Source of the DNA: Escherichia phage vB_EcoM_005 | Sequence record: MK295203 | DNA length: 64,000 nucleotides | Strand: one strand, 5' to 3' | In this document: positions 5,044-56,643 of the stretch, piece by piece | Layout: every line of letters starts with the position of its first letter | Position numbering within the stretch: the first letter of the stretch is position 1 | The notes under the pieces: model-generated | What the model was told of the DNA's origin: nothing | What the model saw: the letters and a program-made list of their open reading frames with translations, nothing else | The model's database searches: none | Made by a program: the position numbers and the translations under genes

Positions 5044-5310
5044 ATGTTAGTATTAAAATTAGCTTTTTATGACCCAGAAACCAAGACAACAACTACCAAA
5101 CGTTGTTCTATTTCATATGACTGCCAATTTGGCGAAGTTGAGACTGACGGCGAGCCCTTTATGGCAATTGCCGATAGCACATTCGCTAAACCAAAAATAA
5201 TTCCACTAGTTAACGCTGCGGCTTATCTGGTTGCTCCTGAAGAAATGACTTATCATACAATTCAGCACATGGCTAAAGACGATAATGCTCCTGCTGGATT
5301 TGTAATTTAA
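5044..5310 (+). CDS. hypothetical protein
   Basis: ORF after gaggtg SD; ends 5 nt before first tRNA. Confidence 0.45.
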   Translation: MLVLKLAFYDPETKTTTTKRCSISYDCQFGEVETDGEPFMAIADSTFAKPKIIPLVNAAAYLVAPEEMTYHTIQHMAKDDNAPAGFVI

Positions 5311-5315
5311 ATTAA

Positions 5316-5389
5316 GGCCCTGTAGCTCAATGGTTAGCAGCAGTCCCCTCATAAGGGAAAGGTTACCGGTTCAAATCCGGTCTGGGTCA
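5316..5389 (+). tRNA. tRNA with CAU anticodon (Met or lysidine-modified Ile)
   Basis: ggccctgtagctcaatggtt...ccggttcaaatccgg: acceptor stem, D-loop AATGG, T-loop TTCAAATCC, anticodon loop cuCAUaa; no encoded CCA. Confidence 0.7.
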
Positions 5390-5397
5390 TTAACTAC

Positions 5398-5472
5398 GTC
5401 CCGCTGGTGTAATGGATAGCATACGATCCTTCTAAGTTTGCGGTCCTGGTTCGATCCCAGGGCGGGATACCA
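5398..5472 (+). tRNA. tRNA-Arg (UCU)
   Basis: gtcccgctggtgtaatggatagc...ggttcgatcccagggcgggatacca: acceptor stem pairs, T-loop GGTTCGATCC, anticodon loop cuUCUaa, encoded CCA. Confidence 0.75.
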
Positions 5473-23382: not shown

Positions 23383-23844
23383 ATGATTATTGAAACATCT
23401 GGGCTGTTTGGTGACCTGACTGCTGAAGTAGTTGATAATGCAATTGTGCTTTCACAAGAAGACGATAAAATCGTACTGACTATCCAAGATATCAAACCAC
23501 TTTACGATTTAAAGGTTTTGGACAAACACGAATATCTTAAGGGTAGTTTTAGAGGTGTATTTGATATTAACGATGATATGTGGGCCCAGATTTATAACCA
23601 TGACAACGGGTTTAATTTGGAAACGGATGCAGAATGTCTAAGCATTAGTGATTCCGCTAATTTCTTTAAATGTATTTTTAAACTGTTCCAGGAAGAATGC
23701 AAGCCGGAAGTTGAATGGAAAGTCCCTGGCCAAGATGCGGTAATTCGTTCTATCGACGGTGAAAATGAAGTGGTATTTACTAAGGACGAGCTTAAAGTTT
23801 TAGTCTCTTATCTGAACTCTGTTATCCCAACTATGAACGCTTAA
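23383..23844 (+). CDS. hypothetical acidic protein
   Basis: 153 aa, SD ggaacgga. Confidence 0.5.
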   Translation: MIIETSGLFGDLTAEVVDNAIVLSQEDDKIVLTIQDIKPLYDLKVLDKHEYLKGSFRGVFDINDDMWAQIYNHDNGFNLETDAECLSISDSANFFKCIFKLFQEECKPEVEWKVPGQDAVIRSIDGENEVVFTKDELKVLVSYLNSVIPTMNA

Positions 23845-23853
23845 GGAAATATT

Positions 23854-24207
23854 ATGGTTATCAATACAAGGTGTTCTGTGCTTGCAGGTAGTACTATTTT
23901 CGGCTTAACTGTTGCAGGTGCCGGTATATTGGAGCAGTTCTTTGTATTGAGTACTCCTGTTGGTTTAAGTTTAGGTTTTATTTTAGGACTGGTTACACTG
24001 GCTCTTATTCTGGCGGTAGCTGTTGGTATTGTGTATTGTATAATGAGTTTCTGGGCCTGGTATGATTTACGTAAAGAAGAAAAAGAATGGGAACTAATTA
24101 AAGCTAAACGTGAAGGAAAGGAAATTAAAGAAAATATCGTTATTCAATATATCAAAGCTCGTAAATCTAAGGTCTGTCCGGTAATCCACTTCGAGGACAA
24201 AGAATGA
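23854..24207 (+). CDS. membrane protein, hypothetical
   Basis: three hydrophobic helices then basic tail. Confidence 0.5.
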   Translation: MVINTRCSVLAGSTIFGLTVAGAGILEQFFVLSTPVGLSLGFILGLVTLALILAVAVGIVYCIMSFWAWYDLRKEEKEWELIKAKREGKEIKENIVIQYIKARKSKVCPVIHFEDKE

Positions 24208-25115
24208 GAACAGTTATGAAAGGCTACTTCGGTAGCCACCTTTATGGAACAAGTACTCCGGAATCTGATGTCGATTTTAAAGAAATCTTTGTTCCACATC
24301 CGCGTGATATTCTGTTAGGTACGGCTATGAACCATACCAACCTGAATACGAATAACACAGCTTCTAAAAACACTAAAGATGATGTTGACCACGAGCTTTA
24401 CAGCCTGAAATATTTCTTTAAACTAGCGGCTGAAGGCGAAACCGTTGCTCTGGATATGCTCCACACTCCACCTGAATTGGTGGTTAAATCTGATTTACCT
24501 GATGTATGGAAATTTATCCAGGATAACCGTTCTCGGTTCTATACAACCAACATGAAAGCCTATTTAGGGTATGTCCGTAAGCAAGCTTCTAAGTATGGTG
24601 TTAAAGGTTCTCGGGTAGAAGATATCAAACACAGACTCCCTGAAAACGAGTTCTGTGAATGGGTATTCCATAACCACGAGAAAACAGGTCCTCAAACGTT
24701 CTATACTGTTCTTGGACGTAAGTACCAAACCACCTTGTCTTTAATCGAGCTCAAGCAATCTCTGAATAAGCTCGATGCGGAATATGGTGAACGTGCTCGT
24801 AAGGCTGAAGCCAATGAAGGTATTGACTGGAAAGCTCTGAGCCATGCTTATCGGGCTGGATACCAGTTGAAGGAAATCTATCAAACTGGTGACCTCCAAT
24901 ATCCTTTACGTACAGCACCGTTTATCCTTGAAATCAAACAAGGGCTTCATGCTTTTAAAGATGTACAGGCCGAACTTGAAGCTATCGTTGATGAAGTCGA
25001 AACTAATGCTATCTGGGCCGCTAAGAATGGTATGCCTGAGAAGGTAGACATGAAGTTCTGGGACAAGTTCGTCGAAGAGGTTTACCTAGAAAACCATAAC
25101 TCGTATTATAAATGA
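24204..25115 (+). CDS. Pol-beta superfamily nucleotidyltransferase (MNT/KNTase-like)
   Basis: N-terminal GSHLYGTSTPESDVDF = G-S-x3-G-x5-SDVD nucleotidyltransferase signature; 303 aa. Confidence 0.6.
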   Translation: MRTVMKGYFGSHLYGTSTPESDVDFKEIFVPHPRDILLGTAMNHTNLNTNNTASKNTKDDVDHELYSLKYFFKLAAEGETVALDMLHTPPELVVKSDLPDVWKFIQDNRSRFYTTNMKAYLGYVRKQASKYGVKGSRVEDIKHRLPENEFCEWVFHNHEKTGPQTFYTVLGRKYQTTLSLIELKQSLNKLDAEYGERARKAEANEGIDWKALSHAYRAGYQLKEIYQTGDLQYPLRTAPFILEIKQGLHAFKDVQAELEAIVDEVETNAIWAAKNGMPEKVDMKFWDKFVEEVYLENHNSYYK

Positions 25116-25116
25116 T

Positions 25117-25139
25117 AAAAGGCCTTCGGGCCTTTTTTG
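25117..25139 (+). terminator. rho-independent terminator
   Basis: aaaggccttcgggcc + TTTTTT. Confidence 0.8.
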
Positions 25140-25157
25140 GGTTTAGTGCAAAAAAGA

Positions 25158-25186
25158 GTTTACACCCTCGTAGAGCATGTTATTAT
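25158..25186 (+). promoter_or_regulatory. T4-type early promoter
   Basis: GTTTACaccctcgtagagcatgtTATTAT. Confidence 0.6.
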
Positions 25187-25223
25187 GGACCTATCAAATC
25201 TACTGAGTGAAATGGAGAATATA

Positions 25224-26204
25224 ATGTTAACTATCAAAATCAACAAAGGTATCTATCGCGGTAATGAAATCTCTGGTACGTTCATGAGTTCAGGTAAAAC
25301 CTGGTTCCCTAATAAAATTCATGAATCCGAAGCTCACCTCGGTGACGGCAAGGTATTCGTACAGATTGATGGTGTTGAACGTGGTGTATGGGTGTTCAAA
25401 TGTGACGTTGAAACGGAAGGTGCTGAAGCTCCTGTAGTGGTTACTGAATCCGCTGAAGAAATGAAGCATCGCATCAACAAACGTTTTAAAGTAATGAACA
25501 TGATGACTAACGGAATCATCGATGGTAAAATTCGTTCCCTTATCATCTCTGGTGCCGCAGGTATTGGTAAAACGTATTCTTTGGATAAAGCATTACAAAA
25601 TGCCCACGAAAATGAAACTATCGAATATAAATCAATCAACGGAAAGATTAGTGGAATCGGTCTTTACGAGCAGCTTTGGAATAACCGCGGCCCTAATAGT
25701 GTTCTTCTTATCGATGATGTTGATGTATTCTCTGATATGGATATCCTGAACCTGTTAAAAGCAGCATTGGATACCGGTGAAAAACGTAAGGTGTGCTGGA
25801 GCACTTCAAGTTCTTACCTCGATGATAAAAATATCGATAAAGAATTCGAATACGAAGGCACCATCGTGTTCATCACCAACGTTGATATTGACCGTGAATT
25901 AGAGCGTGGAACTAAACTTGCTCCACACCTCCAGGCTTTAGTATCTCGTTCAGTTTACTTAGACCTCGGAGTTCACTCGAACGAAGAGATTATGGTTCGT
26001 GTTGAAGACGTTATCCTGTCCACTGATATGATGCAAAATCGAGGTCTGACTGATGCTGAGACTTATCAAGCTTTAGCATGGATGAAGGCTAATGTATCTC
26101 GTCTTCGTAACGTATCATTACGTACAGCTCTTTATCTGGCAGACTTCATTGCCACCGATAAAAATGACTGGAACGAAATCGCTGAAGTTACACTTCTGAA
26201 ATAA
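25224..26204 (+). CDS. P-loop ATPase (AAA-like)
   Basis: Walker A GAAGIGKT, Walker B VLLIDDVD; 326 aa. Confidence 0.6.
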   Translation: MLTIKINKGIYRGNEISGTFMSSGKTWFPNKIHESEAHLGDGKVFVQIDGVERGVWVFKCDVETEGAEAPVVVTESAEEMKHRINKRFKVMNMMTNGIIDGKIRSLIISGAAGIGKTYSLDKALQNAHENETIEYKSINGKISGIGLYEQLWNNRGPNSVLLIDDVDVFSDMDILNLLKAALDTGEKRKVCWSTSSSYLDDKNIDKEFEYEGTIVFITNVDIDRELERGTKLAPHLQALVSRSVYLDLGVHSNEEIMVRVEDVILSTDMMQNRGLTDAETYQALAWMKANVSRLRNVSLRTALYLADFIATDKNDWNEIAEVTLLK

Positions 26205-26613: not shown

Positions 26614-27039
26614 ATGAACGCTAAAGATATTTTTTCACTGATTAATTTCAACAACGGTAATTTCAAATCTGAAAAACAAAGCAAGTTCTTTAACGACGTT
26701 GCTTGTGGTAATGAGATTACCGTATCTGGAGGAGAGATTTACAAAAGCCGTTGGAACTGGATTGTTATCATCGATTCAGTTGGTATTGTAGAGCTCTATA
26801 AAAATACTAACAAAAAACGTACTCTTCACTGGAGTCGTGAAACCAATCAATCTTATCAAGCTGAACGTAACAAACGTTTAATGCCTACTGAATCTGACCT
26901 GGCAAATGTTAAATCTGATATCGCTTATTTCGATAATCTGATTGCCGAGGAACAAGCGGTTATTGATAAGTTTGACGAAATCAAAGCTTGTAAAGAGATT
27001 CCTGAATTCATGGAGCGTTTAAAGACGGTTCTCGCATAA
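26614..27039 (+). CDS. hypothetical protein
   Basis: 141 aa. Confidence 0.5.
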   Translation: MNAKDIFSLINFNNGNFKSEKQSKFFNDVACGNEITVSGGEIYKSRWNWIVIIDSVGIVELYKNTNKKRTLHWSRETNQSYQAERNKRLMPTESDLANVKSDIAYFDNLIAEEQAVIDKFDEIKACKEIPEFMERLKTVLA

Positions 27040-30449: not shown

Positions 30450-30614
30450 ATGGATGTGATGCCGGAAAAAGGTGTATTTGATGATGAGAAGATTGCTGAA
30501 CTCCTGGCTTCTCTTGGACGTGAATCTCAGGTAGGTTTGACTATGCCTCAGGTATTTGCTCCGGACGGAACTTCTATTGGTGGCTTTGACCAATTGCGAG
30601 CATATTTCAAATGA
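30450..30614 (+). pseudogene. nrdC: nrdC (phage glutaredoxin/thioredoxin) 3' remnant lacking the CxxC active site
   Basis: 54-aa ORF MPEKGVFDDEKIAELL...GLTMPQVFAPDG..IGGFDQL..YFK matches the C-terminal part of recalled T4 NrdC; upstream portion replaced by unrelated ORF. Confidence 0.6.
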
Positions 30615-55281: not shown

Positions 55282-55476
55282 ATGCCCGAATCAATTAAAG
55301 TAAAATTTGTCGGCCATTTCGCCAACGGTGATACTGCTACCAAAGAAGTTTCAGTACGTGAAAATGATATTGTGTGGGTGGCCACTCAATTCGCTGAAGT
55401 CAATGGCATTCTAGTCAAGGCCTACGTCGACGACGTAGAAGTTTATGAACACGATGCTCGCATTGAGGAAATCTAA
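55282..55476 (+). CDS. dmd: Dmd-like antitoxin (inhibitor of RnlA/LsoA)
   Basis: 64 aa; VWVATQFAEVNGILVKAYVDDVEV resembles recalled T4 Dmd core; position right after gene 41. Confidence 0.55.
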   Translation: MPESIKVKFVGHFANGDTATKEVSVRENDIVWVATQFAEVNGILVKAYVDDVEVYEHDARIEEI

Positions 55477-55617
55477 ATGGAAGAATTTGAATGTGTAGTA
55501 TGTGGCTGTTCAGTCTATGAAGACCAAGCGGTATTTGATGCTTGGGATAACGCAACCTGTTTAGACTGTGACGGCGAATTCGAAGAAATTGCCCATAAAC
55601 ATGAAGGTGAGGAATAA
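55477..55617 (+). CDS. small zinc-ribbon protein
   Basis: 46-aa ORF with CVVCGC...CLDCDG. Confidence 0.35.
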   Translation: MEEFECVVCGCSVYEDQAVFDAWDNATCLDCDGEFEEIAHKHEGEE

Positions 55618-55857
55618 ATGAATATTACCTTAATGAAACCAACTCCCAGTTCTTTTTGGAACAAATCTTTTGGTAAGCATAATATGTTTATCCAACGTAC
55701 TGTAAGCAACTGGGAACTGGTTCTTTCAGTCGGTCACAACGATTATGAACAAGAATACGTAGAGTTCTTCGAATTTCCTGTGAAGCCTACTAAGCGTCAG
55801 ATTCGTCAGACAAAACGTAAATTCCGTAAAATTTATTTGGAAGATTCGTTAAAATAA
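55618..55857 (+). CDS. hypothetical protein (KPTKRQIRQ tail; paralog of 56645-56866)
   Basis: 79 aa. Confidence 0.45.
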   Translation: MNITLMKPTPSSFWNKSFGKHNMFIQRTVSNWELVLSVGHNDYEQEYVEFFEFPVKPTKRQIRQTKRKFRKIYLEDSLK

Positions 55858-55858
55858 A

Positions 55859-55888
55859 GTTTACAACGGTCTATGGTAGTGATACTAT
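55859..55888 (+). promoter_or_regulatory. T4-type early promoter
   Basis: GTTTACaacggtctatggtagtgaTACTATagacctatcaa. Confidence 0.7.
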
Positions 55889-55916
55889 AGACCTATCAAC
55901 TAACGAGGAGTTAAAA

Positions 55917-56210
55917 ATGAAAAAGTTATTAATCGCAGCAATCCTTACAGTAGCATCATGTGGCACGGCTCCAGTAACTGCCGGATTGGATAAAGACCTT
56001 TGTGAATGGTCTATGACTGCAGACCAAGAATCGGTTGAACATCAGATTTATGCCGATATCATGAACATCACTAAACGCGACCGCCCTGATATGGCTAAAG
56101 AAGTGTCAGACCAATTAGCTTCAGGTGGTGTTATGCAATATAACTATGTTTTGTATTGCGATGCCAATTTCGATAACAAAAATATCGTTAAAGAGGTGAC
56201 AGATGAATAA
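55917..56210 (+). CDS. sp: Spackle (Sp) periplasmic protein, superinfection exclusion
   Basis: 97 aa, signal peptide ending ASCG; DKDLCEWSMTADQ...IMNI.KRDRP.M...SGGVMQYNYVLYCD.NF.NKNI matches recalled T4 Sp. Confidence 0.75.
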   Translation: MKKLLIAAILTVASCGTAPVTAGLDKDLCEWSMTADQESVEHQIYADIMNITKRDRPDMAKEVSDQLASGGVMQYNYVLYCDANFDNKNIVKEVTDE

Positions 56211-56643
56211 GATTAACAGAAATTTAGTTATCAAAAAACTTTGTTGTAAAAATCCAAATGCACAAGCATACAGGATGTTTTGGAGCGACGACCACCAATA
56301 CCTGGGTTATTTTCTTGTTGATAGTGATGATAGAATTACAATGGCCCATAAACTTCTTAACAGAGAATTAAACCATTGGCAAGAACTTATTGCGGTGAGG
56401 TCTAAATTATTTTCATGTAATGCAATGCATCAATTGGTTTATTTTTTCGCTGAAGGTATTCCTGACAAGGTTGAGTTTGATGGATTCGAATTTAAAGATA
56501 TCTTCCCGGACAACGAATTGAACGACTGCGTTAATATGGATATCCCTAGCAAGTACATCAAAAATAGTCTGTTGAAAATTCTGGAAGCCCCGGTTTATTC
56601 AATTGATGACCAAATTTTTAATGCTTTTATGAATCGAGGTTAA
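56203..56643 (+). CDS. hypothetical protein
   Basis: 146 aa. Confidence 0.5.
   Translation: MNKINRNLVIKKLCCKNPNAQAYRMFWSDDHQYLGYFLVDSDDRITMAHKLLNRELNHWQELIAVRSKLFSCNAMHQLVYFFAEGIPDKVEFDGFEFKDIFPDNELNDCVNMDIPSKYIKNSLLKILEAPVYSIDDQIFNAFMNRG

Follow-up and report, generated by a model that had tools for sequence, protein, structure and literature searches.

The 64,000-nucleotide (nt) stretch of the genome of Escherichia phage vB_EcoM_005 analyzed here (sequence record MK295203; hereafter the window) carries two neighboring genes on its plus strand that, by sequence comparison, are the Dhakavirus orthologs of the early genes nrdC.11 and nrdC.10 of bacteriophage T4, located in the hyperplastic early region. 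The explanation that best accounts for the observations as a whole, and that we regard as probable though well short of certain, is that nrdC.11 encodes an RNA-repair enzyme of the RlaP family of Pol-beta nucleotidyltransferases (NTases), that nrdC.10 encodes an AAA+ ATPase independent of it, and that a 99-nt gap by which nrdC.11 is shortened in this record is artefactual. The coordinates of both genes and of their features are collected in Table 1.

Both genes have counterparts in known phages. Megablast comparison of the 3.8-kb region returns Dhakaviruses (JS98/IME08-like Tevenvirinae) over the full length at 92-97% identity, and in JS98, IME08 and T4 both genes are annotated, in the same order and the same orientation, as nrdC.11 ('nucleotidyltransferase') and nrdC.10. 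The initial annotation of this DNA, made from the sequence alone, had named T4 as lacking an equivalent here, which is wrong because T4 carries nrdC.11 and nrdC.10 in the same order. T4 nrdC.11 (NP_049709; 'nucleotidyltransferase', COG3541) spans positions 55435-56445 and encodes 336 amino acids (aa), and the adjoining nrdC.10 (NP_049708; 54343-55320) encodes 325 aa; the window proteins are identical to them at 251 of 303 residues and at 77% of residues, respectively, and window nrdC.11 is 98% identical to its JS98 counterpart outside the gap. Window nrdC.11 is like the T4 gene in position (after mobD/mobD.1 and before nrdC.10), strand and motifs, and T4 NrdC.10 shares length and position with the product of the window gene without material difference. 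A difference in context is that the mobD homing endonuclease gene adjoins nrdC.11 in T4, whereas the Dhakaviruses lack mobD. Both T4 genes were classified by Nolan et al. (2006; PMC1524935), who matched nrdC.11 to the COG3541 nucleotidyltransferases and nrdC.10 to AAA ATPases.

Profile matches and conserved catalytic residues identify nrdC.11, at the sequence level, as a divergent member of the RlaP family. The window protein, the N-terminus of which reads MRTVMKGYFGSHLYGTSTPESDVDF, scores 45.6 bits on the Pfam model of RlaP (PF10127; gathering cutoff 23) and matches PHROG 388 (phrog_388) at 2.8e-126. On the same Pfam model, T4 NrdC.11 scores 46.6, the VR7 protein 43.1 and two divergent homologs 43.9 and 58.0. 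A homolog search of 5.8 billion proteins yielded 3,344 homologs, and PF10127 is precomputed for all of the 120 best-scoring ones, which were those listed. An exhaustive profile search produced 3,807 clusters at 50% identity, and residue conservation was read from an alignment of 148 diverse representatives of these clusters and from a second alignment (A5) of 49 sequences. In the larger alignment the NTase motif G10-S11...S21-D22-x-D24 is nearly invariant (G10 in 148/148, S11 in 146/148, D22 and D24 each in 147/148), and D22, D24 and D84 are invariant in A5. D84 is probably the third catalytic aspartate, as judged from Pol-beta-type spacing; an alternative third carboxylate is D62 (142 D and 6 E among the 148 sequences). 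The initial annotation had reported a GS...SDVD signature of Pol-beta enzymes in a 303-aa open reading frame (ORF), both of which are present, and had named the absence of catalytic carboxylates as what would speak against its assignment. Since G10, S11, D22, D24, D62 and D84 are all retained in the window protein, the assignment to the Pol-beta superfamily survives.

The family owes its name to Burroughs & Aravind, and its biochemistry has recently been described for two Pseudomonas RlaPs, which add one or two nucleoside monophosphates to the 3'-OH of RNA, with Mn2+ as the preferred metal ion, and are inactive on DNA and protein (Carruthers, Fatma & Huang, bioRxiv Dec 2025; PMC12776372). In that study a repaired tRNA that had lacked one nucleotide of its anticodon loop regained aminoacylation through RlaP, and T4 NrdC.11 was assigned to cluster 5 of the RlaP sequence similarity network (PMC12776372). 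In the crystal structure of PfRlaP, an NTase domain at the N-terminus and a helical one at the C-terminus form a cleft. The bacterial enzymes (P. fluorescens, P. aeruginosa) share with nrdC.11 the PF10127 match and the GS...DxD motif with a third conserved aspartate, and putatively the succession of an NTase and a helical domain. They are encoded in rtcB-rlaP-rtcA operons (PMC12776372), and divergent phage homologs likewise lie beside RtcB or RNA ligases; in contrast, Tevenvirinae nrdC.11 shares no operon with a ligase gene. T4-type proteins are also longer (about 310-350 aa) than bacterial RlaP and have another C-terminal half, including a beta-hairpin region. In jumbo phages RlaP is the commonest NTase accompanying RNA ligases, and its predicted role is to put back nucleotides lost from RNA ends before ligation (Iyer et al., 2021; PMC7824862).

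The gene neighborhoods of nrdC.11 homologs point in the same direction. Seventy-two viral loci were sampled, and repair genes were analyzed in 32 divergent loci (36-47% identity). At least one gene for RNA ligase 1 (Rnl1), RtcB, an ATP-dependent ligase or an HD-kinase is found in 22 of these: a T4-type RNA ligase 1 directly upstream of the homolog (9/32), RtcB about 1.8 kb downstream (11/32), an ATP-dependent ligase 9 nt downstream (13/32) and a fusion of an HD phosphatase with a P-loop kinase nearby (8/32). From their gene content, these divergent neighborhoods represent two or more types of compact RNA-repair cassette in phages. The flanks of divergent phage RlaP genes include Rnl1, RtcB, ATP-dependent ligases (DNA_ligase_A_M plus OB), HD+AAA_33 kinase fusions and a Zeta-toxin-like kinase; examples among the loci designated L121-L154 are L134 (8388-10933), L148 (6220-8691) and L152 (17-3621).

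By analogy with the bacterial enzymes, the repair of tRNA breaks as a counter-defence is the best-supported mechanism for nrdC.11, the activity and in vivo substrate of the T4-type subfamily being deduced from its relatives. NrdC.11 would add one or more nucleotides at the RNA 3'-OH of a tRNA cut by a nucleotide-removing host nuclease, after which the phage kinase Pnk (pseT) and the 5'-P/3'-OH RNA ligases (rnlA, rnlB) could reseal a full-length tRNA. Pnk/Rnl-type ligases need 3'-OH/5'-P ends, which is the end type of the RlaP product (PMC12776372), and pseT, rnlA and rnlB are encoded in the lineage, at a distance from nrdC.11. The partner ligases of a T4-type RlaP would be Rnl1 and Rnl2 (3'-OH/5'-P), whereas that of bacterial RlaP is RtcB. 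NrdC.11 would then serve RNA repair in counter-defence and not signaling or a toxin function.

Several observations weigh against this reading. The Pfam match aligns only residues 8-134 of nrdC.11 to positions 25-142 of the 249-position PF10127 profile, and since it stops at residue 134, the C-terminal half differs from that of the characterized RlaP enzymes. An AlphaFold2 model built from an 18-sequence alignment has a mean predicted local distance difference test score (pLDDT) of 65.7; helices make up its C-terminal part at pLDDT 70-88, whereas values in the NTase domain stay below 50, so the model was set aside as evidence of fold. A Foldseek search of the Protein Data Bank (PDB) with this low-confidence model gave only noise (best E=0.015, template modeling score 0.12), and sequence comparison with the PDB gave no match for the single sequence and only chance matches (E>=0.25) for the profile, the PfRlaP structure being either too distant or not contained in the PDB copy searched. 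In the Tevenvirinae, moreover, nrdC.11 does not lie beside RNA-repair genes, its neighbors in the window, JS98, IME08 and T4 being mobD.1, a membrane protein gene and nrdC.10, and the RNA-ligase neighborhoods described above are those of environmental contigs that belong to a small number of related clades. T4 tolerates a deletion from nrdC.11 to mobD.3 in the laboratory (PMC9825161), which fits an accessory role and gives no phenotype. Finally, the artefactual origin of the 99-nt gaps is not provable without the sequencing reads.

The neighboring gene, nrdC.10, encodes what the sequence motifs and a structural model indicate is an orphan, phage-specific family of AAA+ ATPases. The initial annotation had described it as a 326-aa P-loop ATPase with Walker A GAAGIGKT and Walker B VLLIDDVD, and this is borne out and can be narrowed to AAA+. 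Across 29 nrdC.10 homologs, G110, A111, G113, G115, K116 and T117 of Walker A and D164 and D165 of Walker B are invariant, and sensor-1 (N219), an arginine-finger-like SRS motif (S241-R242-S243) and a C-terminal SLRTAL motif with R295 and R300 (sensor-2-like) are conserved as well. The protein belongs to PHROG 1250, and in its AlphaFold model (pLDDT 89.5) an N-terminal beta-domain (residues 1-65) and a linker helix precede the AAA+ core with its helical lid. It shares the alpha-beta-alpha core with lid, as well as the Walker A and B, sensor-1, SRS arginine-finger-like and sensor-2-like motifs, with the MoxR (NorQ/CbbQ), sigma54-activator, MCM, DnaA/ORC/Cdc6, RFC clamp-loader and RuvB clades, and by profile and structure no single one among RFC, DnaA-Cdc6-ORC, MoxR, sigma54 activators and RuvB is clearly the best fit. 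All Pfam AAA models score below their cutoffs, and the best sequence-profile match in the PDB is Cdc6 (E=0.035). In a viral structure library its relatives are uncharacterized phage AAA+ proteins, some of them from siphoviruses, and the family comprises 1,310 phage records. The ATG at 25224, preceded by GGAG and used as the start in JS98 and T4 as well, is the start that makes biological sense; the ORF listing opens the gene at a TTG at 25137 (355 aa), and some records (IME08) annotate such a longer form, which would extend from the upstream TTG through the terminator and promoter described below.

Several other identities for the two genes were considered and rejected. Matches of nrdC.10 to GajB, PtuA and SspF (12-15 bits) cover only the P-loop and are generic, and HTH_37 in its C-terminus scores 17.9 bits against a cutoff of 27. 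The names 'XRE-type DNA-binding' and 'FleQ' are rejected because the C-terminal region concerned models as an AAA+ lid. 'Thioredoxin', 'clamp loader' and 'HNH endonuclease' on either gene are annotation carry-over from nrdC and mobD. In GenBank, orthologs of both genes are widely mislabeled as 'thioredoxin' and occasionally as 'clamp loader', 'HNH homing endonuclease', 'FleQ' or 'RarA'.

Outside the close relatives of T4, nrdC.10 is found among genes of DNA metabolism. Counted as divergent loci with the neighbor among those with enough flank to show it, a UvsW-like superfamily 2 helicase lies about 1 kb downstream of nrdC.10 in 49/66 loci and a DNA polymerase downstream in 24/37, and upstream lie genes for UvsY-like (34/58), UvsX-like (31/55) and gp32-like single-stranded DNA-binding (26/45) proteins. 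In a large, diverse clade of uncultured phages (L018-L082) these form a block of gp32-like single-stranded DNA-binding protein, UvsX, UvsY, nrdC.10, UvsW-like helicase, three PHROGs of unknown function and DNA polymerase; the environmental viral contig L018 (136-12066) exemplifies this block. In the KVP40-like phage VH7D, nrdC.10 lies between nrdA/nrdB/glutaredoxin and topoisomerase II. However, all 49 UvsW-linked loci fall into one single-linkage cluster at 50% identity, and for this reason the UvsX/UvsY/UvsW context was downgraded as functional evidence; the synteny may be specific to one lineage. Gene context thus leaves a role of nrdC.10 in DNA replication, recombination or nucleotide metabolism as a weak lead. 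A broader account in which nrdC.10 would be an unrecognized T4-type replication/recombination accessory that moved beside RlaP in the Tevenvirinae, and NrdC.11 the missing step of Pnk/Rnl1 tRNA repair, appears rather unlikely to us as a whole; its second part is a hypothesis that has already been published.

For nrdC.11 itself, the principal competitor of anticodon-loop repair is an action at the acceptor end of tRNA, i.e., the patching of trimmed 3'-CCA ends or short tailing of RNA, on phage or host tRNAs. RlaP extends any RNA 3'-OH by one or two nucleotides with little specificity for the nucleoside triphosphate (NTP), and it labeled full-length tRNA and rRNA-sized species (PMC12776372); in addition, the phage has its own tRNA genes (window 5316-5472), and Tevenvirinae nrdC.11 is unlinked to ligases. 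Yet when given a mimic of a cleaved tRNA in vitro, RlaP favored the 5' half over the acceptor end (PMC12776372), low NTP specificity is ill-suited to the restoration of CCA, and the RNA-ligase, RtcB and kinase-phosphatase neighbors of divergent homologs indicate the repair of breaks that need sealing. We therefore consider the acceptor end an unlikely site of action. In the tRNA region of the window, ARAGORN finds only tRNA-Met (CAT) and tRNA-Arg (TCT), and three tRNAs (Arg, Asn, Met) are annotated at the homologous place in IME08.

The length of nrdC.11 in the window requires separate comment. Compared with JS98, the protein has one clean in-frame gap of 33 residues after R137, so that the copy lacks residues 138-170, present in full in T4 NrdC.11, and does not have the complete domain architecture. 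What is missing comprises helix 138-152, occupied in 99% of the 148 members and conserved in its hydrophobic pattern, and a variable loop; the spacer from R137 to L178 is 7 aa in the window protein and 23-74 aa in the 147 other sequences. Among the 120 best-scoring homologs listed, the sole protein of 303 aa is the 100% match from vB_EcoM_005 itself, and the other near-identical relatives (>=87%) have 336 aa, except one of 332. The gap is one of many: mobD.1, the membrane protein gene and nrdC.8 are each exactly 33 codons shorter than in JS98, and alignment of the whole window with IME08 reveals 18 gaps that measure 97-102 nt (exactly 99 nt in 15 cases), all inside genes and with 0-2 nt of microhomology at the junctions (Table 1). 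The gap at 30452 starts right after the ATG of nrdC (thioredoxin) and takes out codons 2-34, which would presumably include the CxxC active site of T4 NrdC, and other junctions directly after an ATG include those at 27012 and 32919. The deposited genome of vB_EcoM_005 has 155,101 bp, compared with about 170 kb in relatives.

A single fixed length, the lack of microhomology and the involvement of essential genes favor a sequencing or assembly artefact over a biological cause. Most probably the gaps arose when the source record was assembled, and the real nrdC.11 protein probably has 336 aa. The 303 aa of the initial annotation are thus correct for the record as read but not for the native form. 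It is improbable that the 33-codon gap is instead a genuine in-frame deletion allele of nrdC.11, i.e., a decaying or tolerated variant. The frame is kept, the catalytic residues all lie upstream of the gap and nrdC.11 is dispensable for T4 in the laboratory (PMC9825161), but the seventeen other gaps of about 99 nt in the window, which lack microhomology and affect gp43, gp46 and NrdC codons 2-34 among others, are one fixed length over unrelated genes, unlike natural deletions, and the lost helix is present in 99% of family members.

Whether the two genes form a functional unit was assessed from both sides. In a sample of 80 viral nrdC.10 loci, nrdC.11 lies within 10 kb, always upstream, in only seven, which are the seven closest relatives (>=62% identity); 71 have no RlaP match at all and two more only a distant or weak one. 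Conversely, nrdC.10 follows nrdC.11 in 32 of the 72 nrdC.11 loci, all from close T4-likes and with 0.1-2.3 kb of variable sequence in between, and is absent within 10 kb from the other 40, which include all 33 divergent loci; nrdC.10 is likewise missing near nrdC.11 in eight close relatives, among them three VR-type Dhakaviruses. The direct succession of the two genes occurs only in enterobacterial and Acinetobacter T4-likes. In Aeromonas phage UP87 the distance between them is about 109 kb in record coordinates, or about 59 kb on the assumption of a circularly permuted 168-kb record. From this distribution, nrdC.10 appears independent of the NTase, the adjacency reflecting regional synteny and not function. 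That the NTase and the ATPase would nevertheless constitute a two-gene module, in which, e.g., the ATPase remodels damaged RNA or delivers it to the NTase, has little probability. T4, JS98, IME08 and the 32 loci mentioned have the genes side by side, with strand and order unchanged, but a terminator and a promoter of nrdC.10 itself lie between them, their spacing varies with unrelated inserts, most loci of either gene lack the other, and other lineages place nrdC.10 by UvsX/UvsY/UvsW/DNA polymerase or by nrdAB/topoisomerase II.

The terminator and promoter had been noted in the initial annotation and are confirmed: an intrinsic-terminator-like hairpin (AAAAGGCC-TTCG-GGCCTTTT) with a T-run follows nrdC.11, and a T4-type early promoter (GTTTACA-N13-TGTTATTAT), the best promoter-like match of the region, precedes nrdC.10 and makes it a separate transcription unit. 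The site can be written as TTTACA-16-TATTAT with an upstream TG (25159-25186). Its consensus, GTTTACA-N13-TGATACTAT (GTTTACA-N13-TGaTAcTAT), occurs ten times in the window, always on the plus strand, where chance would give 0.15 copies. By its architecture and behavior, and not by a published consensus sequence, the hairpin with its promoter is a composite terminator/early promoter of the promoter early stem-loop (PeSL) type. PeSL cassettes mediate modular shuffling in the hyperplastic regions of T4-type phages (PMC2839356, PMC4122927), and as here they consist of a stem-loop directly followed by an early promoter between genes of these regions. A unit of this type explains the variable spacing between nrdC.11 and nrdC.10. 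JS98 has the same hairpin and promoter, then a further ORF that lacks annotation and is about 77 codons long (MYAIKNYKYGSYTTNLIALEDTF...), and then a second promoter copy (5045-5463 of the JS98 locus examined), whereas the window has one copy and no ORF (25116-25223); on sequence comparison, the extra ORF is a textbook PeSL-bounded indel.

The least probable reading, and by a wide measure an unlikely one, is that proposed in the initial annotation, according to which nrdC.11 would be a minimal MNT/KNTase-like or a cGAS/DncV-like enzyme that nucleotidylates host proteins or makes or intercepts messengers and thereby defeats CBASS, Thoeris or toxin-antitoxin systems. With such enzymes nrdC.11 has the generic GS...DxD Pol-beta motif in common, and early expression from a hyperplastic region rich in host-takeover genes fits an anti-defence function in general; but nrdC.11 scores far below cutoff on MntA of NCBIfam (13.4 bits, cutoff 60) and below it on NTP_transf_2 (14.3 bits, cutoff 21), has no match to CD-NTase, SMODS or Mab-21 Pfam models at E<=0.1 and matches zero PADLOC families. 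PADLOC and NCBIfam scans of both genes gave nothing above cutoffs. MNT/MntA toxins are small (about 100-140 aa) and have a HEPN partner, whereas nrdC.11, at 336 aa, has a large C-terminal domain that is predicted to be helical, and no HEPN gene lies among its neighbors. The characterized RlaPs act on RNA 3'-OH ends and left E. coli proteins and DNA unmodified (PMC12776372), and divergent homologs adjoin RNA ligases and not signaling genes; nucleotidylation of host targets and interference with CBASS or Thoeris find no support. The initial annotation had also counted clear homology to a housekeeping enzyme against its own proposal, and the homology of nrdC.11 to a family of RNA-repair enzymes is in effect such a finding.

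Table 1. Features of the nrdC.11-nrdC.10 region and related sites; positions are those of the window.
Feature	Position	Strand	Remarks
nrdC.11 ortholog, RlaP-family (PF10127) Pol-beta nucleotidyltransferase	24204..25115	+	303 aa here, 336 aa in relatives
Pol-beta NTase motif G10-S11...S21-D22-x-D24 (GSHLYGTSTPESDVDF)	24231..24278	+	conservation in 148 sequences
D84 (ETVALDMLH), probable third catalytic carboxylate	24453..24455	+	D in 145/148
nrdC.11 gap junction; 33 codons (99 nt) missing, for residues 138-170 in the 336-aa form	24613..24614	+	versus JS98, IME08, T4
Intrinsic-terminator-like hairpin with T-run after nrdC.11	25117..25136	+	GC-rich; identical in JS98
T4-type early promoter	25158..25186	+	best promoter-like match of region
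nrdC.10 ortholog, orphan phage AAA+ ATPase	25224..26204	+	326 aa from ATG
Walker A GAAGIGKT, residues 110-117	25551..25574	+	conservation in 29 homologs
Walker B VLLIDDVD, residues 160-167	25701..25724	+	D164, D165 invariant (29 homologs)
Early-promoter consensus copies	3429, 6904, 12474, 15431, 18754, 22476, 25158, 26559, 54911, 63255	+	
Gaps of about 99 nt	~11520, 13142, 19927, 22138, 23752, 23869, 24613, 27012, 28545, 29880, 30452, 32919, 39397, 39875, 44016, 46586, 51601, 62809		in orf116, orf114, vs, rI.-1/rI, mobD.1, orf88, nrdC.11, nrdC.8, orf82, nrdC.4, nrdC, nrdH, gp46 (twice), orf47, gp43 DNA polymerase, orf39, modA.3
Upstream neighbor, mobD.1/y05I-like protein	23383-23844		Pfam T4_y05I_N/C, 'putative transcription factor'
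Upstream neighbor, small membrane protein	23854-24207		PHROG 944

A further observation concerns the T4 reference record (NC_000866), in which codon 101 of NrdC.11 is translated as X (PDXWKF), reflecting an ambiguous base in that record.

As a discovery the two genes carry little weight, since they are a known T4 gene pair: both have been named since the annotation of the T4 genome, their assignments as NTase and AAA proteins date from 2006, and the RlaP family and the RNA-repair hypothesis have already been described and lately backed biochemically, with T4 NrdC.11 explicitly included. What the analysis contributes lies elsewhere. The many 99-nt drop-outs that the source record appears to carry will spread truncated proteins to databases, the 303-aa 'nucleotidyltransferase' being already present in nr and UniRef. 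nrdC.10 emerges as a widespread phage AAA+ protein, the apparent pairing of which with an NTase is not conserved. For nrdC.11, the phage neighborhoods with Rnl1, RtcB, ligase and HD-kinase genes strengthen the case for repair by T4-type RlaP, which suggests itself as the candidate step by which the classic T4 Pnk/Rnl1 pathway could cope with nucleotide-removing nucleases.

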